This document shows, piece after piece, positions 22,575-58,724 of a stretch of 64,000 bases of DNA (positions within the stretch are counted from its first letter, which is position 1; every line of letters begins with the position of its first letter). The notes beneath the pieces are model-generated. The model was given only the letters and a program-made list of their open reading frames with translations. It was not told the DNA's origin and searched no databases. Origin of the DNA: an uncultured virus (IMG/VR IMGVR_UViG_3300030294_000014) (Duplodnaviria > Heunggongvirae > Uroviricota > Caudoviricetes); IMG/VR virus record IMGVR_UViG_3300030294_000014, one strand, 5' to 3'. Both the position numbers and the translations under genes were made by a program.

Positions 22575-24071
22575 TTATTTTACAAACTTACCAATATTGA
22601 TAAATCTTACCATTTTCTTGGGAGCGTACAAGAATGGAGTTCCGTACAACAATACCATGAAACGATAAGCTGGGCCAAGAAGAGCTAATTCCATTTTCAT
22701 TAGAGGAGCTAATTGAGCAAACTCAACTACTTCATTATCGAATTGGAACATAGCAGATTGATCTGTATTAGGTAAGAATCTGTTCATATCTCTTACAACA
22801 GTTTGACCTGCTCCGTCATAACCTCTTGACAAATCATCAAGAGACACTTCAAATAACGGGAAAAATTCTCCATTAGCAGCAACTCCTGATAAGGTACGAT
22901 AAATTCTGTAACCCGTAGCTTTGTTTACACCTCCGCCGTCGGCAAATTTTAAATCTACAGCCCCATTAGCAACTCCAGCTACTGCAGCTGTGTTGTAAAT
23001 AGCCATATCAGATTCGCCATAACGGTTCAATGCCACAACTCCATAATATACATTTCCAGCGTCAGAAGAAGCCCATTTACTACCTGTAACAGATGTTGGG
23101 ACAGCAGTTGGAGTAGTTGAATCCCAAACTGGTTTCGCAGGAGCTTTTTGAGAATTTGCAGCGGTGCTTGAATTTTTACTTGGCAATTTCTTGAAGAATA
23201 CATCATGATTTAAACCAACTCGACCGAATTGAGAATCAAATGCTTGGACGTGTTGACCCATAATACCATCTGACAAAGAAGGCGTATTAGGCATAATGAA
23301 TTTGTTACCGTAAAAATTCTTTACGAAACTAGACAAAACAGCTGGTGGACCATAAATCTGAGTCCCCAATCCGTAGTTTTCTACGATAGAATTTGCAGCA
23401 GTTTCTATTGCGTCTTCAGTTAAAGCCGAACCTCTAAGGTCAACGACTTGTTCAGAGTTCATATATTCAGCATAGTTGGCCCAAGCGTCAGATTGCATCT
23501 GTTGAGCCAAGAAACCATTAAATTGTTCAGGAACTATTTTTTCATTACCGAAATACAAACCTTGATTCAAAGTTCGTAAAAGCCAAAGTGTACCGTCTTT
23601 AATGGTGCGTTCCATTACAGAACCTACCATTGTATTGACAAGTGTCATTTGATGAGTGATACTCTTGGTAACGCCAAGGTATTTCACCAACTGAGCTCTA
23701 CGTACAAATGTACTGTCTTCTTCCTCAGGCAATTCTCCTTCTCTATTCCAACCGCCGCGATTAGCACCGTATGAAGTTTGTTGGTTATACTCTTCTACTG
23801 TATTATAAGCAGCTTTTTTTGGAACGTCTTTCCATAAACGAATATCATTCTCACGGAATGTAATATGTTTCAAAGTTTTCTCTAAAGATTCTACCTTTAA
23901 AGCTGCGCCTGATGCAGTAGACAAGTCCGCTGTGTCACGGCCAGTAATCTGTTCAGCGGCTAACGCTTTATTTAAAGCGTCAAGATCAGCTGAAGTTCCC
24001 ATTCCATTATGGGCGCCATCTTGTTGAGTAGCATAACCATAATCGGCAAGGTTTATTGATAATCTTTCCAT
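22575..24071 (-). CDS. Major capsid protein (SPO1/Twort-like)
   Basis: GAALKVESLEKTLK, AYNTVEEY and LYGTPFLYAPKK motifs of Herelleviridae-type MCP. Confidence 0.92.
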   Translation of the reverse strand: MERLSINLADYGYATQQDGAHNGMGTSADLDALNKALAAEQITGRDTADLSTASGAALKVESLEKTLKHITFRENDIRLWKDVPKKAAYNTVEEYNQQTSYGANRGGWNREGELPEEEDSTFVRRAQLVKYLGVTKSITHQMTLVNTMVGSVMERTIKDGTLWLLRTLNQGLYFGNEKIVPEQFNGFLAQQMQSDAWANYAEYMNSEQVVDLRGSALTEDAIETAANSIVENYGLGTQIYGPPAVLSSFVKNFYGNKFIMPNTPSLSDGIMGQHVQAFDSQFGRVGLNHDVFFKKLPSKNSSTAANSQKAPAKPVWDSTTPTAVPTSVTGSKWASSDAGNVYYGVVALNRYGESDMAIYNTAAVAGVANGAVDLKFADGGGVNKATGYRIYRTLSGVAANGEFFPLFEVSLDDLSRGYDGAGQTVVRDMNRFLPNTDQSAMFQFDNEVVEFAQLAPLMKMELALLGPAYRFMVLLYGTPFLYAPKKMVRFINIGKFVK

Positions 24072-24091: not shown

Positions 24092-25594
24092 TTATTTAAC
24101 AATTTCAAAACCGTAATCATTTTTGATACGGGCTATAATATTTGCCGGCAAAGATTTGGTAGCTTCAAAATGAGTTACAGCCTTACTGAATTCATCATCA
24201 TACCCTTTAGCAAAAGTAGCTTGGTCAAGTAATTCGGCTACAGCCGCACCTTGTCTACTCATACTTATTTGCTTTTCATTAGTTTTTTCTTTTCCTCCGA
24301 AGTCATTGTCATTTCCCTTTGAGAACTGACGTTCAACGGGTCTTGAAGACGATAGAGATTTGGGAGCTGGGACTTCTGCCCCGAATGCTTCAACCCTCTC
24401 TGACATGGAAGAAATAGTTTCATCTTGTGCTTTTACAACATCTAGCAATTCACTCTCGCGTTCTGCCGCAGCTTCAAGTTTTTGAGTAGCGTCTTTCATC
24501 ATAACCCCAAGTGCCTTAATATACTTAGAATTGATTTGATGAGATGTAGCTATAGCCTTTTCGATTCTGTCGAAACGGTTGCCGCCATCTGCGCCTTTTT
24601 GAACTTTCTTACCCCCTTTATTTTCAGCTTCTTCATCTTCTTCGTCTTCATTGGCTTCCTCTTCAGCAGTTTCCTCTTCGTCAGCCTCCTTTTTCTTAGT
24701 AGATGTTTTAGCTTTCTTGGTAGGTTTCTCGGACTGCATGCCATCGCCGCCGCAACCCTTTGTGACGTCATCTCCTTCAACTGCATCTAGCCCTAGAGCT
24801 TCGTATGCCTTTTGAATATCGTCACTTGTTACGTTTTTTCTTCCTTCCATGTTCGCAATTTTTATTAACATTAAATGAATTTTTTCTGCTTTATCAATAC
24901 TAATAGCTGGAATGTCCTTGAAAAGTTTTTCTACTATTTCAGCTTTTGAAAAATTTTGTTTTTTTACTTTTGAATCTACTGATTCTTTTTTCAAAGCGGA
25001 AGCGTTCTCCGTATTCAATCCCTTGTCTTCTTCTTTTGTATTTTCTTCTTCCTCATCGTCAATATCATCCGTCTCTCCTTTTATTATATTGGCAAAGGTT
25101 TTAGGGTTTTTAGGTTGATGAGTTATAGCTACTCCTGTAATAATAGCTTTTGATATTTGTTTATAATCAGGAGATTTTTTGTCATTAGACTTTCTTTTTA
25201 TAACTCTACCTTCTATTGAGTAACCCAAACGTCTAGTCTTTGAATCTTTTTCAAGAGTTTGAGCTAATTCCCAAACGTCGCAAGCTATTTTGCTTGAAGG
25301 ATAAAGATCAGTTTCTATGTACAAACCCTCTGGGCGTATTTCTGCCGTAGTAGGCTCTCCAATAATAGTTGAAGGTTGTCCCTTAGCTTGATGGTGCCAA
25401 TTAACTAAACCATTTTCTTTTAATGGTTTTATATCAAAACCCTTAGGGTCAAGATACTCTCCATCGCTATCTTTATCGGAAGTTGAAGCTATTCCGCCCA
25501 ATCTCATGATTTTTTCTCCCGTAGTGGGATCAAGACAATCTTGCGATTTTTCTATGGGACACCAGAACTCAAATTTATCTTCTATTTTTGTCAT
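24092..25594 (-). CDS. Prohead protease with C-terminal scaffold-like region
   Basis: GIASTSDKDSDGE, NWHH, LGYSIEG and GVAITHQPKNP motifs. Likely start is MTKIED at 25594. Confidence 0.88.
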   Translation of the reverse strand: MTKIEDKFEFWCPIEKSQDCLDPTTGEKIMRLGGIASTSDKDSDGEYLDPKGFDIKPLKENGLVNWHHQAKGQPSTIIGEPTTAEIRPEGLYIETDLYPSSKIACDVWELAQTLEKDSKTRRLGYSIEGRVIKRKSNDKKSPDYKQISKAIITGVAITHQPKNPKTFANIIKGETDDIDDEEEENTKEEDKGLNTENASALKKESVDSKVKKQNFSKAEIVEKLFKDIPAISIDKAEKIHLMLIKIANMEGRKNVTSDDIQKAYEALGLDAVEGDDVTKGCGGDGMQSEKPTKKAKTSTKKKEADEEETAEEEANEDEEDEEAENKGGKKVQKGADGGNRFDRIEKAIATSHQINSKYIKALGVMMKDATQKLEAAAERESELLDVVKAQDETISSMSERVEAFGAEVPAPKSLSSSRPVERQFSKGNDNDFGGKEKTNEKQISMSRQGAAVAELLDQATFAKGYDDEFSKAVTHFEATKSLPANIIARIKNDYGFEIVK

Positions 25595-25668
25595 CTTTTG
25601 TATAAAATAAAATAAGATCAAAAGTATTGAACTTTCGACCTTATTATAACTGCCAATATAGGAAAATA

Positions 25669-26388: not shown

Positions 26389-27576
26389 TTATTTATTTGC
26401 TTTCTTTTTAGCGGTCTTTATTATTTCCAAAACAGTATTTATCGCATAACCTATTACTCCATCTGTAAATTTACCCGTGGCGGTCAAATCACTTCCTATG
26501 TCACTCCTATTAACAACAGAATCGTCTGCGTGAGCCCTTGCAGTTCTTAAAATCCAAGTTCTTCCTGGTGACGCTTCTTTAGAAGGCTCTGGAACAAAAG
26601 AAGAAGCTTTCTTAGTATCAGAAGATTTTTCTTTAACGGTTTCCTTTTTATCTTCTTTGGAAGTCTTTTCTACGGGCTTCTTAGTTTCTTCTTTTTTGGA
26701 AGAAATTTTCATAAAATTATCATAATTAGTAGCCTCTCTCATTTTTTTATCAGTAAAATCCATTTCATTTAAAACAAAACTTCCGCTCTTATTAAAAGCA
26801 TTTTTAATTCCTAATTTTGTTACCTGATGTTTTTCAAAATTTGCTGATAAATTGAAACCTTTATTTTCGGCAAACTTACCGTCATGATATAAAAAATTAA
26901 ATCTTATATTGTCATTATTTTTATCATAACCGCTTATTCTTACGACGCCATCTGTTTTAGATAAAATATCATTTAACGATTTGATTGAATAAACTTCTTT
27001 ATTTTTTATTTTTTTATTTTCAGAAGTTTTTTCTACAACATTTTCAGTCTCTTCTTTTTTAGAAGATTTTCCATCTTGTTTAGAATTACCAGAAGGATTT
27101 TCATAAGAATCTGTTTTCTTTTTATTTCTCCAATCCCCCTTACCTCCTGCGGCAGACGAAACCCAAACCCACTTACCATTCTTATGTATTTCGCCTTCGG
27201 TATGAGCCTTTTCAAAGGTCTTCACATCATCTAATAAAATATCTTCTGCTTTCTCTAAAGGCATATCTTTTTCATTGAAAAATTCATCGTCTTGAGCTTT
27301 CCAGGTCTCAGGTAATAAATCTTCTTTATCAAGTTCTTTAGCGCGTTTCTTTATCCAAGTTTTAGCCTTAGCTTCGTCTTTAGCTCTTCCAACTGAACGA
27401 ATGGCGTCTTTTAAATCTTGAGTATTTCTTATAGGGAATGAACCATCGGGCATAGCTTCTTTTTCTTTAGATAAAGTTTTTCTCTTCTTCTCAGAAAAAT
27501 CATGTTCATTACCTCCTTTTTCTATTACGTCTTCAAGCAATAATGCTTCGGCTTTTTCTATTGTCATTTCATCCAT
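26389..27576 (-). CDS. Putative internal head protein (DUF6582-like N-terminal domain)
   Basis: AMPDGSFPIRNTQDLKDAI motif; repeated (I/L/F)EK(A/G) sites; preceded by late-type motif. Confidence 0.6.
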   Translation of the reverse strand: MDEMTIEKAEALLLEDVIEKGGNEHDFSEKKRKTLSKEKEAMPDGSFPIRNTQDLKDAIRSVGRAKDEAKAKTWIKKRAKELDKEDLLPETWKAQDDEFFNEKDMPLEKAEDILLDDVKTFEKAHTEGEIHKNGKWVWVSSAAGGKGDWRNKKKTDSYENPSGNSKQDGKSSKKEETENVVEKTSENKKIKNKEVYSIKSLNDILSKTDGVVRISGYDKNNDNIRFNFLYHDGKFAENKGFNLSANFEKHQVTKLGIKNAFNKSGSFVLNEMDFTDKKMREATNYDNFMKISSKKEETKKPVEKTSKEDKKETVKEKSSDTKKASSFVPEPSKEASPGRTWILRTARAHADDSVVNRSDIGSDLTATGKFTDGVIGYAINTVLEIIKTAKKKANK

Positions 27577-27621
27577 GATATGTTATTTTTAGAAAATTAA
27601 TTATGATAAAAATAATAACTG

Positions 27622-29055
27622 TTAATCAGTCTCCCATCTTATAGGAAGAGTTATTCCATAAAAATCTTCCATTATTTCATTAGTTATTTTTTTAACATTT
27701 TCAGAATCTTTTCCCTTATCTAATTCTTTATTTACAAGTTTCTTTCCTCCTTTAACAAGTCTTATAACTTCCTTAATGTTCTTTTTAGCATTGAATAATT
27801 CATGAACTAAATCAAAATTCCACTTAGTATCTTTCAAATACTTTGAAGAAGACATTTCAGAAGCTTTCTTAAGAATCTCAGCGAATTGTTTAGGAGTGGC
27901 ATCCCAAGGAATAATTATTGCTCTTATATTTTCAAATAGAGGGTCATATAAATCTTTAGTTTCTCCCTTAATAAGTCCTTTATAATCTCTTAAAACGGGA
28001 TAACAACCACTTAGCATAGCTTCTATTATAAATCCATTAATATGCGTTCTACAATAATTTGCATAATGTTGAGCCCAAGACGGGTCTACCGCGAATTTAC
28101 TATTAAACAAATTCTTCCTTACATCTTCTCCACTTATCTGTCCTAGATATTTCATACCGAACTTTTCAGCTACATCCCAAATCTTTTCTCCAATATATTT
28201 TTTACTTATATCAGGGTCTCGTTTTCTACTAACTTTATAAGTTTCTTTACATTTAGTAGGTGCTACCATATAAGCTTGTTCTATTCCCGACCCCGCTATC
28301 TTTACAGAATATTCTTCATCAAGATAAGGGATAGCTCTTATAAGGTCATCAACATGTTTCATAGATTTAAAAATATGAGCGGCAAAAAAATCGTTTTTTC
28401 TCTTACTCATAATTTTTAAGGGCATATTATCTCCTTCTTTTAAAAAACGAGGATTTAGCAATAAAGTTCTTGGTATTCCTATATTCTCACAACAACGATA
28501 AGCGGCTATATGAGCGCACTCTAAAAATAATATCTTATCTTTCAAGGCGGTTATATTACTAGCTCTTATGTCAAAATAAGCATCGTGAACAATAAAGATT
28601 TGTTTTATATCAGACGTAGGAAGGTCAAAGAATTTCCACCAAAAACTAAAATCCCCCTTACCCCACGCACTTGATTTAGTAGGCATAAAATTCCACATTA
28701 TAAGATCAAAATCTTTTACAAGGTTATGCCATCTTTCTAAAGCATTCTTTTCAAAAACTCCTATACGATTACTCGGCGGAAGAAAAAAACCATAATAATT
28801 ATTCTTCCAATAACAAGTCGCTTCATCGTATTCATAGCCGCCGTTCTGGGAGTTCGTCTTCAATTTATCTTGAAAACGCCCACTCTCAAATTCTTTTATT
28901 TTATTGTCGTAAGTCTTTTGATTCGTAGCAGAATTTGATAATTGTGCTATATCTACCGTATGTCCAAGAGATTTCAAAGCTTTAACTTTAGCCGTTACAT
29001 GCTCTATAATCCCGCCATACTTTGCTATCTCAAAATCTGCTATAAGTATTTTCAT
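27622..29055 (-). CDS. GT-B (GT4-like) glycosyltransferase
   Basis: MKILIAD...GGIIEH...LGHTVDI N-terminus; KHVDDLIRAI; IIEAMLSGCYPV. Confidence 0.8.
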   Translation of the reverse strand: MKILIADFEIAKYGGIIEHVTAKVKALKSLGHTVDIAQLSNSATNQKTYDNKIKEFESGRFQDKLKTNSQNGGYEYDEATCYWKNNYYGFFLPPSNRIGVFEKNALERWHNLVKDFDLIMWNFMPTKSSAWGKGDFSFWWKFFDLPTSDIKQIFIVHDAYFDIRASNITALKDKILFLECAHIAAYRCCENIGIPRTLLLNPRFLKEGDNMPLKIMSKRKNDFFAAHIFKSMKHVDDLIRAIPYLDEEYSVKIAGSGIEQAYMVAPTKCKETYKVSRKRDPDISKKYIGEKIWDVAEKFGMKYLGQISGEDVRKNLFNSKFAVDPSWAQHYANYCRTHINGFIIEAMLSGCYPVLRDYKGLIKGETKDLYDPLFENIRAIIIPWDATPKQFAEILKKASEMSSSKYLKDTKWNFDLVHELFNAKKNIKEVIRLVKGGKKLVNKELDKGKDSENVKKITNEIMEDFYGITLPIRWETD

Positions 29056-29061
29056 ATCTTT

Positions 29062-29760
29062 TTAAAATGGTAAATCATCTGCCGAATTATTTATTACTAT
29101 TGGTTTATAAATTTCTTCGGGAAGTTGTTTTTTTATGTAACCCTGTTCGTAAAATTGAAGTCCACTCTGAGAACGATAAAATTTTGAAGCTAATTTCCAT
29201 TTCACTTCGTCAAATTCTTTAACATCATAAGAAGCTTCCAAACTTAAAAATTTCAATCTTTCCGATAAATGAAATTTAGCCTTTCTTTTATATGAATGAG
29301 GAAACTCTCTATAACAATATTCGGCATACCCATAACAATACAATAAATTAAAAACCCAATGATGAAAAGGATGTCCGATACCTAATGGAGAAAATACTAC
29401 ATAATCAGAATTTTTTCTTAAAAAATTTTCAATGAATTTTATAAGCTTTTTTTGCATTTCAGATAATTTTTTTTCTCCGTAATATTCTCTCAAAAAATCT
29501 TCCGATTGTTGATTTGACATCTCCTTATACAATTTATAATACCCATAGTAACTATCATCAATAAAATCTGAATCAAGGCTATGAAATGGTATATTAAGAA
29601 AATCAAATAATTTTTTGTCTTCGGCTATTCTCTTCGGGTCACTCTCTACAGTAAGAACCTGAACTTCATATTCTGGCATAAATAAAATATGAGAACAACT
29701 AAATAATCCGTCGTCAGAATGAGGTTGTATCAATAATACTTTTGTTTTTATTTCTCCCAT
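29062..29760 (-). CDS. PIG-L/LmbE family de-N-acetylase
   Basis: LLIQPHSDD, GHPFH and FYRSQ motifs. Confidence 0.82.
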   Translation of the reverse strand: MGEIKTKVLLIQPHSDDGLFSCSHILFMPEYEVQVLTVESDPKRIAEDKKLFDFLNIPFHSLDSDFIDDSYYGYYKLYKEMSNQQSEDFLREYYGEKKLSEMQKKLIKFIENFLRKNSDYVVFSPLGIGHPFHHWVFNLLYCYGYAEYCYREFPHSYKRKAKFHLSERLKFLSLEASYDVKEFDEVKWKLASKFYRSQSGLQFYEQGYIKKQLPEEIYKPIVINNSADDLPF

Positions 29761-30713
29761 TTTCTTTTGATTATTATAGAAGATAATGGACCAAATTTAC
29801 TAACTTCTTTTGCCATATTTTTAGCTTCTGACGAAATTTCAGGTAAATCTTTTTGTCCTGAACTATCTGGTAAAAAACCTACTCTCATACTCATATTTGT
29901 ACAACCACTACAAGGTTTGAAATCTCTACTATAATTATACAACATAATTCTAGCTGCTTGAAAACGTTCATGGTTCCACAATTCAACTATACCCATATCA
30001 TTAATATTAGCTATCGGATATTCACCACGAAAATCATCACAACACAATGAAACATTACCATCATATCTAAAAGCTAATTCACGAAACGGCATAGTACATC
30101 TTTTTTTATTATAAGATAAGTTTAGAGGTGCTGCGGCACCGCAATGATTAGCAAGCTTTCTGGTTATCTTATGATCATCTTTGATAGGAGGTAAAAGAAG
30201 TATTCTTTCTTTCTTATTATTAGTGTATAATGGTATTCCCTTATTATGAAATACGATATTCCAATCTCCTTTTATTTCGTTGATAAAATTCCAATCTCCT
30301 TCGTCGGAATAACAATCTACAATAAGGTTATTTATTCCAGAATCAAATAAATTCTTAAGATACTTTTCTTTGTTTTCAGAATTATTTATTCCATATCCGT
30401 TAGTATACATATGGAATACGGCATCTGGAAGATTCTTTCTAAAGATTTTTATTATTTCAAAAATCTTGGGGTTCAAAGTCGGCTCTCCGTGCTGAGCAAA
30501 AACTATTTTACTATTCCAACCCGCTTTTGATATTTCGCTTGCTATTCTCTCGGCTATTTTTAAATTCATATGATTCCAAGGTTTAGTTCCCTTTTCTCTC
30601 ATACCTCTTAAACCACAAAATGAACAACCTAAATTACAACCTTCTGTCGGCTCTATCAAAACTGTGAAAGGAGACTGTTGTAAATCTTTAACTAAGACAT
30701 TTTTATTTTTCAT
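29748..30713 (-). CDS. Radical SAM protein with SPASM/twitch domain
   Basis: CNLGCSFC; HGEPTL; CTMPF...DGNVSLCC...PCSGC. Confidence 0.92.
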   Translation of the reverse strand: MKNKNVLVKDLQQSPFTVLIEPTEGCNLGCSFCGLRGMREKGTKPWNHMNLKIAERIASEISKAGWNSKIVFAQHGEPTLNPKIFEIIKIFRKNLPDAVFHMYTNGYGINNSENKEKYLKNLFDSGINNLIVDCYSDEGDWNFINEIKGDWNIVFHNKGIPLYTNNKKERILLLPPIKDDHKITRKLANHCGAAAPLNLSYNKKRCTMPFRELAFRYDGNVSLCCDDFRGEYPIANINDMGIVELWNHERFQAARIMLYNYSRDFKPCSGCTNMSMRVGFLPDSSGQKDLPEISSEAKNMAKEVSKFGPLSSIIIKRKWEK

Positions 30714-30721
30714 AAAACAAA

Positions 30722-31654
30722 TTATTTTGAAACTTTTATGTTTAACTTTATATCTTTTAACTTTGAATTTTTAGAAATTACTTTAATCGGTTTTGTAAAC
30801 GCCCGAAGTTTTGAATCCCAAGCAAAACCCGCCTTTTTATTATTTATAGTACAACGACAATAAGGATGAGTTGGAGAAATAGTCGGAAGCCATTGAGAAG
30901 TTTTTCTTCCTATATTATTACCATTTTTAATTATTTCAGATAATTTAAAAACAATCGGCTCACTGTCGGAATCTTCAGGATTAATCAAATAAAGTTTTTT
31001 ACAATGTTTACAAGCTCCTGTATATACATCAAAATAAACTTCTGCTTCTCCTCCGTAATTTTTTAATATGCTTTGAGCTCTTCCTGTATTATATGATTCA
31101 TGAGTCAAATAATAAGCTATTCGAAGCCAATCTACTTCCCAATCTTTAGAAATATTAGAAAGCTCCGAAGCTAAACTTCTTGCTCCTGACCTTAATTCAA
31201 CTGCCTTTATTGCCTTTCCTCTTATTATTTTTTGAACTAATAAGGATTGGCTTTGATTATTTTTTAAAACGGAATTACTCAAAGAAGTTCTCATCCTACT
31301 TCCTAAACTAGTTATATCGTTATAAACTCTATTTTTAACATTCTGAAGAGCAAATTCTTCCTCTTCTGTAAGAGGTATGAAATTCCCCGAAGAAAGGAAC
31401 TTTTGAAATTGAAGGTATGACATTTTTTTAGCTCTTTCATCTCCTATAGATTCAGCTAATATTCCAAAAAGAAAAGCATGTTCGATTACTCCCTTTTTAT
31501 CTTTAAACTTATCAATATTTATCCCATGAGATTTCAATATTAATTTATCCGACGCGGAAAGAAAATCAAGCCCTATTTGGCTTGATATAAATACCAATTC
31601 ATATTTTCTTAAAATTGATAATAATTCTTGTATTTGAGATTGGTTAAAAATCAT
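30722..31654 (-). CDS. Head morphogenesis / MuF-like minor head protein
   Basis: RIAYYLTH, ACKHC and PTHPYCRC motifs. Confidence 0.75.
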   Translation of the reverse strand: MIFNQSQIQELLSILRKYELVFISSQIGLDFLSASDKLILKSHGINIDKFKDKKGVIEHAFLFGILAESIGDERAKKMSYLQFQKFLSSGNFIPLTEEEEFALQNVKNRVYNDITSLGSRMRTSLSNSVLKNNQSQSLLVQKIIRGKAIKAVELRSGARSLASELSNISKDWEVDWLRIAYYLTHESYNTGRAQSILKNYGGEAEVYFDVYTGACKHCKKLYLINPEDSDSEPIVFKLSEIIKNGNNIGRKTSQWLPTISPTHPYCRCTINNKKAGFAWDSKLRAFTKPIKVISKNSKLKDIKLNIKVSK

Positions 31655-31839
31655 GTTTTCTTCTCCTTCTCGTTTTCTTTAATAGCCGAAGCTGTTTCTT
31701 TAGCTAAATATTTAACTATTTCTCCCATAGCCGAAGCTGTATTTTTATTCCAATCTTTTATTAAAGTGTCTTCATATTGTGTCACAGCGGGAAACGGCGA
31801 AGGTATAAAATGAATTTCTTTATTTTGTTTTTTCGACAT
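31651..31839 (-). CDS. Small hypothetical protein
   Basis: 62 aa, coupled to neighbours. Confidence 0.55.
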   Translation of the reverse strand: MSKKQNKEIHFIPSPFPAVTQYEDTLIKDWNKNTASAMGEIVKYLAKETASAIKENEKEKKT

Positions 31840-35030: not shown

Positions 35031-36701
35031 TTATTTTGTTTCTTCTTTTTCTAAGAAATTGTCAAATGCTTTTACCAATGAATTATCTTCTCCCTTACTA
35101 GTTTCCTCATCTTCGTCTTCTTCCTCATAAGAATTAGAAGAATTATTTGGATTATCATTATTAGGATTCACAGAAGGATTCTGTTGCGCTAGAGCTGCGG
35201 CGTTTTTATTACTTACATAAATAGCATTGTTAGGAGCGTCACCTTCTTCTAAAGGTTTCATCTCATATTTTTCTCTAGCTTCATTAACTGTCATGAAACT
35301 GCTAACTTTATCAATATCCATTTTCAATTCTTCATCAATAGTCAAACCATTTAATCCTACAAAAATAAATTCATAATCAGGATTAATTTGTTCAACAATA
35401 TATTTATTTATTTTTCTTTGCATGAATTTCAAAAGAGGATACAAACCTTTATCTTTAGAATGCTTTAGTCTTTGTTCTTGGCTTCCTTCAAATAATCCTC
35501 CTCCACTACCCGAAGAGTGACTGATGTCCCAACCTATTTCAGTTGGATCAATAGAATAAATTGCACAAGCTAATTTTATCAAATACTCCATCCAAGAAGA
35601 GTATTCCATGTCTCTATTATTTTTTTGTAAATCAATCCAATCTACATCTGCTTCTACAACAGGAGTTTTCCAAGATTGCATTACTCCTGATATCATAGAT
35701 TGCCATTGTTGTTTAAACTGTTGTAAAGCCGCTTCGTTATTAGTTCCTTTTATTCTAAGCAAACCCTTAGGAGCCGACCCCTGACTAAAGAATCTTCTAT
35801 TGTATTCATCTCCCCATAGCATTGAAGTAACTACATTTATCAATTCCTCAAGTTCTGAACATCCGTAACCGTTAGCGAATATTGAAGTAGATGGATTCCT
35901 AATGGCGAAACAAAGTTCCCAAGGATAAAATTCATTTACTTTCATATTTTGATATACTTGAACATAAGCTGGATAATATCCATGAATCTTTGCGCCAAAA
36001 TCTTTTCTATCTTGCCAAACATTTGCCCCCTTTCTTTGAAAAAATACATTATCATAATCTTTATCAAAAAAAGAATCTGACATCCTATAAGTGGCAGCGT
36101 CCGTAGCCATGAATGATTCTAATTGTCCTCTTCTATTTCGTATACATTCAAAAGTCATTTGATCATATACTAAAGAATCTTCAACGGTCTTTCTTATAAA
36201 TGTATCAAAATCGTCATGATCCCAAGAGTTTACATTTCCTCCCTTTAATATAAAATCAGTTATTGCAAACGCTATTTTTTTATCTCTATTATCCATCTTC
36301 TGCTCAATACCGCCCTTAGGTTTTTTTCTAACAACAAAACCTGTAGAATATTTATTCTCTTGAGTCTCGGCAAAGTCCGCTACTTGATTTTTTCTAGTTT
36401 TTATTATAGAATTTATAATGGGAGTTTTAGCCATTCTTCTTATCGTTTCATAAGACAAGGAAAAAGGTTTATCCTTATATCCTAGATTTGCATTGAATTC
36501 TAAGGGGTCAACGAAAAATGACTTTGGAGTTTGTTCATTTTTATTTTGTATAGAATTATAAACTTGATTAGCCTTTACCATATCGTCTGGTGAATCTGAA
36601 CGTAAAGCCTTTTCAAGAGTTCTGAACTTCTTGGCTTCTAATTTCTTTTCTGCAAGCGTTATTGCGTCTAACTGTTTTGAATAACTCATACTATAAATCA
36701 A
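35031..36701 (-). CDS. Portal protein
   Basis: NGYGCSELE, RRFFSQGSAPKG, DMEYSSWM and TVNEAR motifs. Confidence 0.92.
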   Translation of the reverse strand: MIYSMSYSKQLDAITLAEKKLEAKKFRTLEKALRSDSPDDMVKANQVYNSIQNKNEQTPKSFFVDPLEFNANLGYKDKPFSLSYETIRRMAKTPIINSIIKTRKNQVADFAETQENKYSTGFVVRKKPKGGIEQKMDNRDKKIAFAITDFILKGGNVNSWDHDDFDTFIRKTVEDSLVYDQMTFECIRNRRGQLESFMATDAATYRMSDSFFDKDYDNVFFQRKGANVWQDRKDFGAKIHGYYPAYVQVYQNMKVNEFYPWELCFAIRNPSTSIFANGYGCSELEELINVVTSMLWGDEYNRRFFSQGSAPKGLLRIKGTNNEAALQQFKQQWQSMISGVMQSWKTPVVEADVDWIDLQKNNRDMEYSSWMEYLIKLACAIYSIDPTEIGWDISHSSGSGGGLFEGSQEQRLKHSKDKGLYPLLKFMQRKINKYIVEQINPDYEFIFVGLNGLTIDEELKMDIDKVSSFMTVNEAREKYEMKPLEEGDAPNNAIYVSNKNAAALAQQNPSVNPNNDNPNNSSNSYEEEDEDEETSKGEDNSLVKAFDNFLEKEETK

Positions 36702-37700: not shown

Positions 37701-38777
37701 TTATTTTTTAACAATTGTTTTAGGAACAAATTTTGAACGTTGTTTGCCCTCTCCTATTATCATTTTCCAATATTTTTGGAACTCGCATAACCACATTTCA
37801 ATTTGGTGTAAAGTTATATTACAATCTTTACTTAAAATATATCTTTTATTTATTTTATCCCAATTAAGATACGGCATTGCTTCTCCTCTCTTCTCTCCTA
37901 TCTCCTTAAGATAAATATTAGCTTCATCTCTTAACCAATAAATAGCTTTTTTTTGTTCTCTTACACCATTTAAATTTGGATAAATCAAACGTATTCCAAT
38001 AGAAGCTCCTGGACCAACGTTTGTAAAATCATTTTGGTCGAAACTCATAAATTTTCTATCGGTATACTTTGGCATATAAGTAAAATCTTGATAAAATTCG
38101 TGAGCTATAAAATCGGCTGCTGCAGGAAAAGTTTTAAGATATTCGATTATTCGTTCAGGAGTTTTAGCACTAACAACTGTTGCTATTAGCTTGCTTATAT
38201 TTTTATGTAAATAAGGTATTACCATTCTTGTGTAACAATAATCTCTAGGTTTCCCTGGAGTTGCTTGAGAATTTATAAGATACGCCGCCGTGTATGGATT
38301 TTGACCACTTAGACGAACGCCCGCTATAAACTTAGAAAACTCTTCCTCATTATATTCTTCCCAATCTGGTATTCCGTTGCGCCATTTAGTAGCCGATATC
38401 AATTCTATCTTAGAAGACGAAAATAAATCTTTTTGCACAACTTTATTTTTAGCTTCAAATGTAAATGTTTCAGGGTTATTAAAAAAACGAAAAACCATCA
38501 TCTTCCAGATCAAATTTTTCATTGTTAAGGAATCGTCTAATATGATATTTTTTATTTGCCATTGACTATTTCTATCAAGTTCTCTATAGACATTTGTAAA
38601 CTTAGATTCTTGAAATATCTTATTTTTTGTCCAAGGTCTTTCTTTTTTTTCTATAAACCGTCTCTTCCAAATTATTTGTCTTTCATACATTGTTTCAAAA
38701 AACAATATTAGATTTGGTTTATATACTTCCAAATTTTCATTAGGTAATTTGTTATACCACGCTGAATTTTCAAACAT
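37701..38777 (-). CDS. 5-hmdU DNA kinase-like protein (aGPT-Pplase1 family)
   Basis: ERQIIWKRR...PWT...KFTNVYRELDR, FRFFN, YTAAY, VGPGASIG and IEMWLCEFQKY motifs. Confidence 0.82.
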   Translation of the reverse strand: MFENSAWYNKLPNENLEVYKPNLILFFETMYERQIIWKRRFIEKKERPWTKNKIFQESKFTNVYRELDRNSQWQIKNIILDDSLTMKNLIWKMMVFRFFNNPETFTFEAKNKVVQKDLFSSSKIELISATKWRNGIPDWEEYNEEEFSKFIAGVRLSGQNPYTAAYLINSQATPGKPRDYCYTRMVIPYLHKNISKLIATVVSAKTPERIIEYLKTFPAAADFIAHEFYQDFTYMPKYTDRKFMSFDQNDFTNVGPGASIGIRLIYPNLNGVREQKKAIYWLRDEANIYLKEIGEKRGEAMPYLNWDKINKRYILSKDCNITLHQIEMWLCEFQKYWKMIIGEGKQRSKFVPKTIVKK

Positions 38778-46081: not shown

Positions 46082-46522
46082 TCATATCCCTGTATGACCA
46101 AAACCTCCTGCGCCACGTTCAGTTTTTTCGGTAAAAAAAGATTCAAATTCAAATGTCGCTTGAACTACATTTTCTACAAAAACAAACTGAGCAATTCTTT
46201 CTCCTCTTATAAAAGAAACTGATTCATCACCCTCGTTTATTAATAAAATATTGCATTCCCCCTGATAATCAGAATCAATTGTTCCAGGAGAATTAATGCA
46301 AGTCACCCCATATTTAAGAGCTAAACCGCTTCTTGGTCTAACTTGAACTTCAACGTCTTCGGGAAGTTGCATATAAATTCCTGTATGTATAAGTTTTCTT
46401 TCTCTGGGCTTAAGAATAAAATCTTCATTAGATTTAACATCTGCGCCAGAACTTCTGGGAGTTGAATAAAATGGAACCTGTCCGCCATCCTTCAAAATAA
46501 TCTTAATAACTCTTTGTTTCAT
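46082..46522 (-). CDS. dut: Trimeric dUTPase
   Basis: SGADV, RPRSGLA, GTIDSDYQG, RIAQ and RGAGGFGHTG (motifs 1-5). Confidence 0.97.
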   Translation of the reverse strand: MKQRVIKIILKDGGQVPFYSTPRSSGADVKSNEDFILKPRERKLIHTGIYMQLPEDVEVQVRPRSGLALKYGVTCINSPGTIDSDYQGECNILLINEGDESVSFIRGERIAQFVFVENVVQATFEFESFFTEKTERGAGGFGHTGI

Positions 46523-46593: not shown

Positions 46594-48288
46594 TTAACCA
46601 ATAAACGTATATTTGAAACCAGTTGTTATTAAATTTGCCGCTAATTTAGCCAACCAAAATGAAGAACTTATATCGTCATGATCTGAAACACTTTGTAACC
46701 CATGTTCTGTAAATGCTACTGAACCTAAATCACTAAAAATCAAATCTTTGGCATTTTGAGAATATGCATCTCCAACAGGTATATGTATTTTGCCCCTTTC
46801 CATATCTATGGCCAACCCTGGCCAACCTGTTTTAAGATCATATTTATCTATTCCCGTAGTATGCCCGACTACCGGCAACCCCTGCTTATCTGATTCTTGA
46901 ACAAATATTTGTTGAAAAGTATTTTGTTCCATCACAATAGTATTAGGTCTGAATCTAGCATTTAGCCCCTTTAAAATTTGCATTTGTTCATGAAATGTTT
47001 TGCCCTTATCTCGGTACATATTTAATAACCATCTCTCTCCCGTATCTCCATCAACTCCCCAAGTTGTAAATACAGTATAATCTGCTCCAACATTCGCTGA
47101 AATAGCGAAGTCACATCCCATTACTACCTTATCGAATTTTATTGGAAAATCGTCTCTATTCCTAACTAACGTATAATTTTCCATTCTTAATAAAGAACGC
47201 TCAAGAATATTTAATGGAAATATAGAAGATTCATTTGTAATAGGTCTACATAAATTTTCTCTTGAAAATATTATATTTCCTTGACTTTGTTTTTTATCCA
47301 TAAGGTCAGAAAAACTCCAACGTTGTGGCCATAAAATTCTTCCATCTGGAAATATTGCTGGGTATTCTATTACAAACCAACCTTTTTCGTCTTTTGTTGC
47401 CTTACTTTTTAAATCGCCGTATAAATCAGCCGCATGGAATGGAGTTCCTACTACAATTATTTGACCTCCCGGAACAAGCATATTCATAATAACAGAATGA
47501 AAATAATCAGTGCTCTTCTGACGTTGTAAAGAGCTATATATTACGTTATCTTTCAATCCGTCATCAACTACTATCCAATACGGGTGAGCACCACGTACGG
47601 ATGACCCAAAACCCTTACAGGTTAATCTCGCTCCGTTCTTACAAGATATATTAGTACTTGCCCACGCTCCATCATTTCTTGAGTTCGGATAGAGCCTATC
47701 TTTCAATATGTCATTCCCTTCGATAGTCCCCTTAAGAATTTCCATTAAATCTACAGACTGTTGCAAAGAATAACTAAATAAATATCCACGATTAGAATTT
47801 GACTTTGAAGGTCTTGCTGAAAATCTTCCGCTTTTAGGCTTAGAATATTTGTATAATTGCCAAGCGGGATAAGCATTGGAAAAATAAAAAGACTTTCCGT
47901 GATCTCTAGCTGCATTTATACATAACTTTCTATGCCTATGAACAAGGTCTCCCCACTCTAAATGATGCCAAGATAACTGAAAATCAGGCATAACCGACGT
48001 TATAAAATAAGTCAAATTTCTTGACCTTAAAACCTCTTCTATAGAAAGTGAAAGTCTTTCTTCATATTTAGGAGAAAAATCAATATTGGGGTCTCCTGTG
48101 AACATTACTTGATAGGCGTCTTTCATTAAATTATCAATCACCCAATCAATATCTCCCTGAGAACCTTGCATTAATTCTAAAACGCCCTTATCATCCATTC
48201 CGTCGATTATTTCATCAACGACGTCAAGGCATTCTAACCTATGCATAGGAGATTGAAGAAGAGTGACATTTGAACCTATATCTAACAT
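46594..48288 (-). CDS. terL: Terminase large subunit
   Basis: AARDHGKS Walker A, IVVDD Walker B, VGTP, GCDFAIS...DYT and HDD nuclease motifs. Confidence 0.93.
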   Translation of the reverse strand: MLDIGSNVTLLQSPMHRLECLDVVDEIIDGMDDKGVLELMQGSQGDIDWVIDNLMKDAYQVMFTGDPNIDFSPKYEERLSLSIEEVLRSRNLTYFITSVMPDFQLSWHHLEWGDLVHRHRKLCINAARDHGKSFYFSNAYPAWQLYKYSKPKSGRFSARPSKSNSNRGYLFSYSLQQSVDLMEILKGTIEGNDILKDRLYPNSRNDGAWASTNISCKNGARLTCKGFGSSVRGAHPYWIVVDDGLKDNVIYSSLQRQKSTDYFHSVIMNMLVPGGQIIVVGTPFHAADLYGDLKSKATKDEKGWFVIEYPAIFPDGRILWPQRWSFSDLMDKKQSQGNIIFSRENLCRPITNESSIFPLNILERSLLRMENYTLVRNRDDFPIKFDKVVMGCDFAISANVGADYTVFTTWGVDGDTGERWLLNMYRDKGKTFHEQMQILKGLNARFRPNTIVMEQNTFQQIFVQESDKQGLPVVGHTTGIDKYDLKTGWPGLAIDMERGKIHIPVGDAYSQNAKDLIFSDLGSVAFTEHGLQSVSDHDDISSSFWLAKLAANLITTGFKYTFIG

Positions 48289-57687: not shown

Positions 57688-57761
57688 TTTATTTTATCTC
57701 CTTTAAGCATATCATTATTATTTTATATAGTTGTTTGGTATAAATAACTTTGTTAACAATA

Positions 57762-58140
57762 GGAAAGGGGCAACTTTCGCTTGCCCCAAATCTCGGTTTA
57801 TGCTGCGGCTCTTAGCGGCTGCGTAAACATTTTAATCGAATTTTTGCCATTTAGTAGGCTCTGTAAATACTCCGCTAATCATACTCGTGCGTTGTCAAAA
57901 CCATATATCCCCGTTTGAAGGTTTTTTAAAGAGAACCTACAAACTCTAAGGGTTGCCGATTATTCGACGCCACCACTCCTTTTTACGAAAGGAGAAACGG
58001 AAGGTACTTCGATATTTGCGGACTTAATTTATAAACTAACAATTAAACTTAGTCAGGCAATTCTTCTTTCCCTTGTGGAGATAGTGGGATTCGAACCCAC
58101 GTCCAACGCATTTTACTAAAAGCATCTTCATACTTACGTT
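57762..58140 (-). ncRNA. ssrA: Circularly permuted two-piece tmRNA
   Basis: Acceptor piece ...TGCGTTG GAC GTGGGTTCGAATCCCAC TATCTCC A ends at 58076. It lies upstream of the coding piece GGGGATA TATGGTTTTGA CAACGCA..., which starts at 57912. Tag ORF 57848-57798. Confidence 0.9.
57765..57790 (-). terminator. Terminator ending tmRNA coding piece
   Basis: GGGGCAA gcgaaag TTGCCCC TTT. Confidence 0.75.
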
Positions 58141-58142
58141 CT

Positions 58143-58724
58143 TTAATAACTTTGTAATTCTTTTCTTCGTTCATAGAATATTGAATCCCAATTTCGTATA
58201 ACATCTAACTCTTTGAGGTAATCAGTTAAATTCATACCAACGGGTATTTCATCTTTATAGCATTCTTCTGGAACATCTACGTCTTCTATGTTTTGTATCT
58301 TTTTATCCCAAACTGATTTGTTTAAACCTATCCACTCTCTAGCATCTGGTCTGGTATCATATATATCAAAATATCTTTTCTTCTCTATAGGACTAGGATA
58401 TATAAGAAGATAAGGTAAATCCAAGTACTTAAAAACTTGTCTAGCCTGTACGGACATAGCCGTTAATACTATCTTATCTCTTTCGATTATTTTCGTAACG
58501 GTTTCTATATAATTTTCTGGGAAATTATCATTCTTTATGCCATTAGCTTTATCAGAATAAAAGTGTTCTGAAAACCAACCGTCCTCGAATCCAATACAAT
58601 GCCCTTCTAAATAAGTCTTACCAATTCCAGGATAGTCGCATATGGCTTTTATTTTACCAGAAAGGAAGGCTTGTTTTATTTGTTGTCTATTTTTTATTAA
58701 TTTCCATAATAAGAATATTAGCAA
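58143..58724 (-). CDS. P-loop nucleotide kinase-like protein
   Basis: ICDYPGIGKTYL and NFPENYI motifs; true start uncertain. Confidence 0.6.
   Translation of the reverse strand: MLIFLLWKLIKNRQQIKQAFLSGKIKAICDYPGIGKTYLEGHCIGFEDGWFSEHFYSDKANGIKNDNFPENYIETVTKIIERDKIVLTAMSVQARQVFKYLDLPYLLIYPSPIEKKRYFDIYDTRPDAREWIGLNKSVWDKKIQNIEDVDVPEECYKDEIPVGMNLTDYLKELDVIRNWDSIFYERRKELQSY

Follow-up and report, generated by a model that had tools for sequence, protein, structure and literature searches.

Three tightly spaced genes of an uncultured virus of the class Caudoviricetes (IMG/VR record IMGVR_UViG_3300030294_000014) raise the question of what a radical SAM enzyme, a deacetylase homologue and a glycosyltransferase could jointly modify in a phage. 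The analysis was carried out on a stretch of 64,000 nucleotides of this record, referred to as the window. Like every gene of the 64-kb window, whose GC content is ~30%, the three genes are located on the minus strand. They encode a radical SAM enzyme whose C-terminal domain is of the BtrN-like Twitch/SPASM type (rSAM; 29,748–30,713; 321 aa), a homologue of metallo-deacetylases of the PIG-L/LmbE fold (PIGL; 29,062–29,760; 232 aa) and a GT-B (GT4-like) glycosyltransferase (GT; 27,622–29,055; 477 aa). The open reading frames (ORFs) of rSAM and PIGL overlap by 13 nt (29,748–29,760) and a gap of 6 nt (29,056–29,061) separates PIGL from GT; this is exactly the layout given by an earlier interpretation of the DNA, the sequence-only reading, which took the trio for a candidate amino-sugar hypermodification operon. 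The analysis presented here indicates that the trio is most likely a post-replicative DNA glycan-hypermodification cassette of a ~98-kb myovirus with 5-hydroxymethyl-dU in its DNA. As for the chemistry, we lean towards the transfer of an N-acetylhexosamine (HexNAc) onto 5-hydroxymethyluracil (5hmU) in DNA, its deacetylation to a hexosamine and an optional radical tailoring of the sugar.

Identification of the Three Enzymes

The window GT matched the family PF00534 weakly (E 0.07, 13.1 bits), and 23 of 47 members of the GT family matched it, the best one at E 2.6e-12. The AlphaFold2 (AF2) model of the protein had a pLDDT of 93.5 and a helical C-terminal extension. In a structural comparison using VIA, where rows within 1 Z unit were treated as ties, TarM (Z 24.8) was tied with the T4 DNA alpha-glucosyltransferase (AGT; Z 24.4 to 23.4). 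The AGT alignments were the longest (337–349 residues, rmsd 3.5–3.7 Å, 12–13% identity), and HepE, PimA, BshA and MshA were found in lower rows (Z 23 to 20). The GT-B/GT4 assignment made earlier was thus confirmed by a GT-B fold at Z 20–25 and by PF00534 at the level of the family. In BFVD, the best match of GT after its own homologue was annotated as 'DNA alpha-GT [Cyanophage S-TIM5]', and the top 11 matches included two glycosyltransferases of the phage SP-15 and another 'DNA alpha-glucosyltransferase'. The pI values of GT and rSAM were 8.96 and 9.02, respectively; since the proteome is Lys-rich, they were considered too weak a sign of DNA binding.

The PIGL protein of the window scored under the cut-off of PF02585 (E 0.049; 14.6 bits, cut-off 28.2), five of 39 family members matched PF02585 at E ≤ 0.01 (best 1e-4) and the PIGL profile had no match among PDB sequences. 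The AF2 model (pLDDT 93) was compared using VIA, and the top 22 rows all belonged to LmbE/PIG-L proteins (Z 17.2 to 11.8), the next fold following at Z 8.1. The best rows were the teicoplanin pseudoaglycone deacetylase (Z 17.2; 198 residues, 3.3 Å) and the A40926 pseudoaglycone deacetylase (Z 17.1); further rows included BshB (13.8), diacetylchitobiose deacetylase (13.6) and MshB (12.4). Foldseek gave E 2e-7 with a probability of 1.0, and a bacterial PIG-L cluster of the ESM Atlas was matched with a TM of 0.71. The motifs P13-H14-S15-D16-D17 and H130-P131-F-H133 (x at the third position) were invariant in 39 of 39 sequences, and we take them to be the (A)HPDD and HxxH motifs of the family, which make up the zinc site and general base and contain the MshB/BshB metal ligands. 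The PIG-L deacetylase call is therefore clear in terms of the fold, with only LmbE proteins at the top, and weak in terms of the sequence match.

The rSAM protein was predicted earlier to be a BtrN-like Twitch/SPASM radical SAM enzyme, and this was borne out: PF04055 (E 1.6e-13, 51.6 bits; cut-off 29.5) and PF13186 (E 5.1e-12, 46.3 bits; cut-off 21.5) were both matched above the cut-off, and BtrN was by far the closest solved relative. A profile of 11 rSAM homologues matched BtrN (4m7t) with E 1.3e-13 in an alignment that spanned the core as well as the Twitch domain; the next solved protein, anSME, was matched at E 0.0028. The motif C26-x3-C30-x2-C33 (CX3CX2C) of the SAM-binding [4Fe-4S] cluster was invariant in 11 of 11 homologues. 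The only invariant cysteine residues of the C-terminal part were C206, C224, C225, C268 and C271, and C191 was present in 10 of 11 homologues. The profile aligned C206, C224, C268 and C271 with cysteine residues of the BtrN Twitch domain, which are presumably the cluster ligands of BtrN. A Twitch domain holds one auxiliary cluster and a full SPASM domain holds two, with ~7 cysteine residues; the full two-cluster SPASM motif was not evident in the 11 aligned homologues. Based on the invariant cysteine set and the BtrN alignment, rSAM looks like a Twitch enzyme with one auxiliary cluster and the extra invariant Cys225. The candidate function of a BtrN orthologue (2-deoxy-scyllo-inosamine dehydrogenase) is not supported, since neither the window nor the complete relative G011 yielded 2-deoxystreptamine genes or other aminoglycoside-pathway genes.

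In INPHARED, no nucleotide match to positions 27,000–31,700 and no protein match to GT or PIGL were found. The rSAM matches in this database were the 'BtrN' genes of Campylobacter Firehammervirus (26% identity) and one unverified record with a bacterial context (ABC transporter, Spo0A, V-ATPase). In the Campylobacter phage CP20 (MK408758.1, 74–81 kb; locus L001), five radical SAM genes are clustered, including one SPASM-type 'BtrN', together with an annotated glycine amidinotransferase, an aminotransferase-like gene and a PAP2 phosphatase, and with no glycosyltransferase. Neither the CP20 locus nor the unverified record provides information on the function of rSAM.

Conservation of the Cassette in Related Phages

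A PIGL-based scan of IMG/VR revealed an identical twin of the window and 16 relatives, all 16 of which had the order of 310-aa ORF, PIGL and GT in a locus lacking rSAM. The rSAM gene was also absent from all five whole PIGL–GT records searched (four of them at least 90% complete) and from a sixth, 90%-complete record; the positive controls were matched in these searches. The rSAM-based scan gave 15 loci, namely the twin, 11 rSAM–PIGL–GT loci, two loci where rSAM was combined with a protein like the TET-associated glycosyltransferase (TAGT) and one locus in the complete genome G014. The rSAM–PIGL–GT loci had the gene order of the window at rSAM identities from 81% down to 47–48%. Together with the locus L004, this amounts to 12 trio loci besides the twin, and the same order at such divergence indicates that the arrangement did not arise by chance. 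The sequence-only reading had made its proposal depend on the co-occurrence of the three genes in other genomes, and these 12 loci provide it.

In G014 (123.9 kb), rSAM is located beside the protease and capsid genes and the PIGL–GT pair is ~44 kb away. In a tree of 24 distinct GT sequences, 11 had an adjacent rSAM gene, one had a distant rSAM gene and 12 had none. After midpoint rooting, rSAM-bearing lineages were found on both sides of the root and those without rSAM formed two or three shallow groups, so the trio looks old and rSAM looks lost in some clades. PIGL and GT are the constant core of the cassette; since this pair also occurs without rSAM, the latter is dispensable and not an obligate member. 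At 90% identity, the homologues formed 148 PIGL, 377 GT and 271 rSAM clusters. These homologues lie on contigs of ~90–125 kb, the size of the phages in question, and were phage-restricted in the searches made.

Some loci showed variations of their own. In L014 (6593–7354) and L018, a 253-aa ORF with a NUMOD3 match (PF07460, 1.3e-4) and, by eye, a GIY-YIG-like N-terminus is located between PIGL and GT and is probably a homing endonuclease. The 4.4-kb contig L036 (1–1439) has two tandem rSAM paralogues, 72% and 48% identical to that of the window, ahead of PIGL–GT. Directly upstream of PIGL–GT in G014 (L064 8–712; G014:C1:61367–62296), the homologue of the 310-aa head protein has 491 aa and a C-terminal InPase domain (PF18823, E 5e-50). 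A few kb upstream of the G014 rSAM gene, a 165-aa ORF matches a reverse transcriptase (L037 791–1288; PF00078, 1.3e-7).

Evidence for 5-Hydroxymethyluracil in the Phage Group

A Pfam search of the remaining window ORFs revealed a 5-hydroxymethyl-dU DNA kinase gene (5-HMUDK, or HMUDK; 37,701–38,777, minus strand; PF18723, E 1.8e-47, 162.5 bits) at a distance of 8.6 kb from GT. All 10 of the relatives' records searched contained the kinase, and the phage matches of the window kinase were ViI-like and SP10-like phages. In passages of PMC5889632 and PMC8989533, 5-HMUDK is described as a hallmark of thymidine-hypermodifying phages; in the window it may mark DNA with 5-hydroxymethyl-dU and would thereby provide the context for the trio.

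The complete, trio-bearing genome G011 (97.9 kb) encodes a 399-aa ThyS homologue just upstream of the Pol III alpha gene, as well as a YfbR-like 5'-deoxynucleotidase and a dUTPase. A ThyS homologue was found in all six relatives checked (G011 and five of five more, including the record nearest to the window). The best named-phage matches of these proteins were SPO1 gp29, SP8, SP-10 and CP-51 (39–46% identity), several of which are annotated as dUMP hydroxymethylases. The rSAM-bearing genomes G011, G012 and G014 all carry ThyS of the dUMP-hydroxymethylase type. No ThyS or Tet_JBP was found in the window using Pfam. A dUTPase/dCTP-deaminase-like enzyme is encoded there (46,082–46,522, minus strand; PF00692 7.9e-28, PF22769 3.1e-9) and could plausibly supply dUMP for the synthesis of 5-hydroxymethyldeoxyuridine (5hmdU). 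Judging from its gene content, namely the kinase, the SPO1-type ThyS, the YfbR-like 5'-deoxynucleotidase and the dUTPase, it is very probable that the phage group incorporates 5hmdU in its DNA. The presence of HMUDK and SPO1-type ThyS leads us to expect 5hmU rather than 5-hydroxymethylcytosine (5hmC).

Glycosyltransferase and Radical SAM Families in Other Phages

An exhaustive search of 1.84 billion proteins revealed GT relatives in 181 representative clusters at E ≤ 1e-3, so the GT family is small and distinct and not a generic GT4 group. Five other members of the family were sampled for genomic context (P0249, P0274, P0243, P0244 and P0252). The P0249 clade, which shares 30% identity with the window GT across 469 residues (E 1e-55), comprised 54 loci, 53 of them with a full GT call. 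Upstream sequence of 1300 nt or more was available for 39 loci; among these, a TET/JBP homologue abutted or overlapped the GT start in 37 and was located 767 nt upstream in one. The remaining locus (L118) had the order RNR, an ORF, HMUDK (PF18723, 1.8e-36), GT and ThyS (PF00303, 4e-20). Tet_JBP was confirmed by Pfam in all four P0249 loci tested (E ~1e-24 to 1e-15). In the P0274 clade, GT was followed by a ThyS homologue after a 12-nt gap in three of three loci, where the upstream sequence was missing. The homology of the window GT to the TET-, HMUDK- and ThyS-linked glycosyltransferases extends over the full length (E 1e-55, 6e-48 and 1e-37), with 28–30% identity to those that abut Tet_JBP or are located between HMUDK and ThyS.

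T4-like phages of the P0249 clade (L094, L076 and 43 others) encode, in this order, Tet_JBP, GT-B, a 271-aa protein, a dNMP kinase and the clamp. The 271-aa protein has a weak match to Anp1, a GT-A-type mannosyltransferase (E 1e-4), and is located downstream of GT in 45 of 53 loci, mostly adjacent to it, which suggests a second sugar transfer.

Paralogues of rSAM were found beside glycosyltransferases of another fold. A TAGT-type GT-A protein follows rSAM in the loci L024, L033 and L035, and that of L024 matched PF20691 (2.7e-8, 34.4 bits; cut-off 27.5). The genome G007 carries the rSAM–PIGL–GT trio and, between the genes of the large terminase and a dUTPase homologue, another rSAM copy (56% identical); this copy precedes the gene of a 278-aa protein with a match to PF20691, the TAGT family (34.4 bits vs. 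a cut-off of 27.5). In L035, the gene order is HMUDK, rSAM, TAGT-like, orf110 and portal, and the cassette is located right after the kinase. A glycosyltransferase of either fold adjoins rSAM in 15 of 16 rSAM loci other than the twin; rSAM thus travels with glycosyltransferases of two folds, in two cases inside the DNA-metabolism region. No TAGT member was detected in five of five whole relatives' records, and the fragments G015 and G001 are without the region of the 310-aa head protein.

Proposed Pathway and Points against It

According to the preferred pathway, the GT-B enzyme would first move a HexNAc onto the hydroxyl group of the 5hmU bases of phage DNA, the simplest donor being UDP-N-acetylglucosamine (UDP-GlcNAc) of the host. 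The PIG-L-fold enzyme would then strip the N-acetyl group and leave a hexosamine that is positively charged near neutral pH. Where rSAM is present, the BtrN-like Twitch enzyme may tailor the DNA-borne sugar at a C–H bond, either by oxidation of a secondary alcohol as in BtrN, which is the simplest analogy, or by radical epimerisation. An analogy for the latter is NeoN, which uses a cysteine hydrogen donor; here, the candidate donor would be Cys225. The likely purpose of the modification would be to shield the DNA from host nucleases and to neutralise its charge for packaging, as in other thymidine hypermodifications.

The gene structure, the three folds and families, the conserved synteny, the window kinase and the genomic associations of the GT and rSAM families were observed; from these we infer the DNA acceptor, the sugar identity, the deacetylation, the step order and the rSAM chemistry. 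A HexNAc donor is suggested by the obligatory pairing of GT with PIG-L, by the GlcNAc transferases TarM, BshA and MshA among its structural neighbours and by a phage glycosyltransferase that uses UDP-GlcNAc on 5hmC; the latter adds glucose or GlcNAc to 5hmC in vitro, as described by Burke et al. 2021 (PMC8256090). The closest matches of PIGL deacetylate GlcNAc that is already on a large scaffold, which suits a DNA-borne sugar. Since the rSAM family also pairs with deacetylase-free TAGT cassettes, it is probably not restricted to substrates with the free amine. Of the pathway outlined by the sequence-only reading, the enzyme-family logic holds and, of the two targets named there, the hydroxymethylated base gained support from HMUDK, ThyS, the Tet_JBP-linked glycosyltransferases and the rSAM–TAGT pairs; the radical step did not stand as an obligate one. 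The interpretation has thus been sharpened towards DNA by comparative genomics, namely by HMUDK in the window, ThyS in the relatives and the family contexts of GT and rSAM, and is partly supported.

Several observations weigh against this interpretation. No aGPT-Pplase or AADT was found among 84 window ORFs (E ≤ 1e-3), the four neighbours of the kinase (E ≤ 0.01) and 87 ORFs of G011. As aGPT-Pplase is the normal partner of HMUDK, the relation between the kinase and glycosylation lacks an explanation; a search of the ESM Atlas with the 214-aa neighbour of the kinase returned nothing. Other possible products of ThyS homologues are 5hmC or 5-hydroxycytosine, according to PMC13326640. In the clade of the window, the trio is located in the head block and not beside the kinase or ThyS, and in every relative seen the trio or the PIGL–GT pair follows the 310-aa head protein within the head-morphogenesis block, a position that also fits the modification of virion proteins. 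TarM, a GlcNAc transferase of wall teichoic acid, is nominally the top structural match of GT, the GT sequence profile matched glycogen synthase and BshA, and no AGT sequence was matched by the family profile. The window GT is just 27–30% identical to the TET-, HMUDK- and ThyS-linked clades, so its acceptor could have changed. The nearest outgroups, P0243, P0244 and P0252, had no loci in IMG/VR, and P0243 had none in JGI metagenomes. Finally, rSAM of L035 contains an in-frame stop at a conserved Trp and the TAGT gene there has a frame break, and the TAGT-like protein of L033 was under the Pfam threshold (E < 0.001 was not reached).

Alternative Explanations

An unlikely explanation, and the one that survives best among the alternatives, is that GT and PIGL glycosylate virion proteins (capsid or internal head proteins) or an envelope polymer such as teichoic acid, with rSAM tailoring the glycan. 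The position of the genes favours it. The trio lies between the portal gene (35,031–36,701, minus strand; PF04860 6.7e-21, phrog_12 5.9e-52) on one side and the genes of the prohead protease (24,092–25,621, minus strand; phrog_1028 2.7e-33) and the major capsid protein (22,575–24,071, minus strand; phrog_752 4.7e-83) on the other, and therefore inside the head gene block, where the sequence-only reading had also placed it. In all loci examined, the PIGL–GT pair follows the 310-aa head protein and precedes large ORFs resembling internal proteins. Some mycobacteriophages glycosylate their capsids with glycosyltransferases encoded beside structural genes. TarM, the top VIA row at Z 24.8, adds GlcNAc to ribitol-phosphate teichoic acid, and the substrates of most GT4-like matches are lipids, polymers or small molecules. 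However, TarM and T4 AGT are in a statistical tie, Tet_JBP, HMUDK or ThyS genes are physically linked to the GT gene in three further clades of the family and rSAM paralogues occur beside HMUDK and TAGT-type glycosyltransferases in the DNA-metabolism region. In addition, Pfam revealed no glycan-export, lipid-carrier or sugar-nucleotide genes among 74 further window ORFs.

There is a slim chance that rSAM acts before GT and not after it, as an oxygen-independent analogue of TET/JBP that converts the C5-methyl group of thymine (or 5-methylcytosine) in DNA to the hydroxymethyl acceptor of the neighbouring glycosyltransferase. Such a reaction would involve hydrogen abstraction from the C5-methyl group, transfer of an electron to the auxiliary cluster and capture of water. 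A fully ligated auxiliary cluster of the BtrN type could serve as the electron sink. Tet_JBP lies immediately upstream of the GT-B family in 37 of 39 loci and rSAM fills that slot for both types of glycosyltransferase; TET is the usual partner of TAGT, as the name of the Pfam family indicates, and G007 has two pairs of rSAM and glycosyltransferase. Moreover, an oxygen-sensitive enzyme points to a host that lives anaerobically, a condition under which TET does not function. Nevertheless, an acceptor source other than rSAM exists in G011, G012 and G014, which have rSAM and still carry ThyS of the dUMP-hydroxymethylase type. The PIGL–GT pair persists without rSAM in 12 of 24 distinct lineages and in the five whole records searched, and the closest solved enzyme oxidises an aminocyclitol alcohol and not a methyl group. 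If true, this explanation would mean an anaerobic route to 5hmU/5hmC and base-J-like DNA in phages of anaerobes.

The chance is slimmer still that the trio makes or alters a small molecule, for example an aminoglycoside-like or thiol-cofactor-like glucosamine conjugate or a modified nucleotide sugar. Butirosin biosynthesis uses the same three enzyme families (BtrM, BtrD and BtrN), pairs of GT4 and PIG-L proteins make mycothiol and bacillithiol (BshA/MshA at Z 20–22 and BshB/MshB at Z 12–14 in the VIA comparison) and BtrN is the closest solved relative of rSAM. Against this, no cyclase, aminotransferase, ligase or export genes were found with the trio in the window or in G011, other clades of the GT family belong to DNA-base pathways and the genes were restricted to phages in the searches made. 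It is very improbable that the three genes are unrelated accessory neighbours brought together by chance, as the dispensability of rSAM, its distance from PIGL–GT in G014 and the homing endonucleases between PIGL and GT in L014 and L018 might suggest, since 12 loci of widely differing rSAM preserve the gene order, with reading frames that overlap or abut, and a glycosyltransferase of some fold adjoins rSAM in 15 of 16 loci.

Comparison with Known Systems

Glycosylation of 5hmU in DNA, the preferred reading, was compared with described pathways. It is established that phages glycosylate their DNA with GT-A and GT-B enzymes whose pathways include 5mYOX (TET) or ThyS, as stated in PMC8256090 and in the preprint 10.1101/2023.12.21.572611 (Pyle et al. 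2023, cited in PMC13229309 as Cell Rep 2024). According to the preprint, GT-B pathways are often linked to ThyS, and phage T-dioxygenases associated with glycosyltransferases are described in a section of PMC13229309. Like these pathways, the proposed one would place a sugar on a hydroxymethyl pyrimidine post-replicatively, and distant members of the GT family abut Tet_JBP. Unlike them, the window GT has a PIG-L-fold enzyme and a Twitch rSAM as partners, is located in the head block and not beside base-synthesis genes and is expected to meet 5hmU instead of 5hmC. Deacetylase, LmbE, hexosamine and radical SAM are not mentioned in the main text of the preprint, whose supplements list co-occurring domains and could mention them. 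With T4 AGT (PDB 1y6f, 1ya6, 1xv5), the window GT shares the GT-B fold, AGT being a tied best structural match; the window GT is ~80 residues longer and has no sequence-level link to AGT, which, according to the entry titles, uses UDP-glucose on 5hmC.

The phage group resembles the 5-HMUDK/AADT hypermodification systems in having 5-HMUDK in the window and ThyS of the dUMP-hydroxymethylase type in the relatives, and differs from them in that aGPT-Pplase and AADT were found neither in the window nor in G011. In these systems, the thymidine products often end in a primary amine, and the radical SAM enzyme gp53 of the phage M6 tailors a DNA-borne group and is described as similar to the spore photoproduct lyase (Lee et al. 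2018, PMC5889632; Lee et al. 2021, PMC8989533); the window rSAM is BtrN-like and not of that type. The main texts of both articles mention no glycosyltransferase and no deacetylase.

The succession of a GT4-type glycosyltransferase and a PIG-L/LmbE deacetylase is shared with teicoplanin biosynthesis (Orf2*/Dbv21), with BshA/BshB, with MshA/MshB and with BtrM/BtrD plus BtrN of butirosin biosynthesis. Solved members of these pairs, which perform GlcNAc transfer and deacetylation, are structural neighbours of both window proteins at 12–20% identity. Unlike those pairs, which act on small molecules or glycopeptides, the genes studied here belong to a phage, have no other pathway genes nearby and encode enzymes whose proposed acceptor is DNA. 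A sugar on 5hmU in DNA is also found in base J, the glucosyl-hydroxymethyluracil of kinetoplastids (a section of PMC13229309), whose synthesis relies on JBP dioxygenases and a glucose-adding GT-A enzyme and involves no amino sugar, deacetylase or radical SAM enzyme.

A full-text literature search revealed no article joining 5-HMUDK hypermodification with a glycosyltransferase, phage 5-hydroxymethyl hypermodification with a glycosyltransferase and radical SAM, phage 5-hydroxymethyluracil hypermodification with a deacetylase, or BtrN with phage DNA modification. An amino-sugar DNA modification of this kind is not yet described chemically.

Other Features of the Window

The window encodes a tail sheath protein, a baseplate J protein and a large terminase (TerL; 46,594–48,288, minus strand), and the phage is contractile-tailed. 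The 310-aa ORF directly before the trio (30,722–31,654, minus strand) had no library match, and we take it to be a MuF/SPP1-gp7-like head protein solely because of its C-terminal CxxC...HPYCRC motif. GT is followed by a 395-aa ORF (26,389–27,576, minus strand), for which no family was found, and then by a GH108 endolysin. In the relatives L007 (8174–12516) and L004 (7492–12074), proteins of 660–830 aa are encoded downstream of GT and have in common an N-terminal 'HPNGKWVWT..GKFDWR' motif; the 395-aa ORF of the window is a shorter version of them. These proteins may be internal head or ejection proteins.

Promoter-like and terminator-like sites in the window were no more frequent than in shuffled sequences (52 vs. 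55.5 expected and 6 vs. 4.1, respectively), so no operon boundary could be drawn. A permuted tmRNA was found at 57,798–58,135 on the minus strand (Rfam RF04321, tmRNA_permuted; 48.3 bits, gathering score 47). ARAGORN also called a permuted tmRNA, at 57,707–58,165, with the tag peptide GKNSIKMFTQPLRAAA.

Significance

Phage DNA glycosylation shown so far concerns neutral or acidic sugars on cytosine derivatives. If the proposed pathway is true, the deacetylase step would lead to a cationic amino sugar on thymine-derived bases and the rSAM step would represent new enzymology for DNA-borne glycans; the product would be the first base in DNA to bear an amino sugar, and rSAM would be the first known case of a radical SAM enzyme acting on a DNA-borne sugar. 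Such DNA should resist restriction enzymes, CRISPR nucleases and probably type IV enzymes specific to glucosyl-DNA. It would also confound sequencing chemistries, and the enzymes would be useful for site-selective DNA labelling. Since members of the GT family adjoin Tet_JBP, HMUDK or ThyS in other phages, the family could serve as a simple genomic marker to predict DNA glycosylation in phages whose base-synthesis genes are remote from the glycosyltransferase gene. Given the numbers of PIGL, GT and rSAM clusters, the modification, if real, would be widespread in one abundant group of ~100-kb phages.

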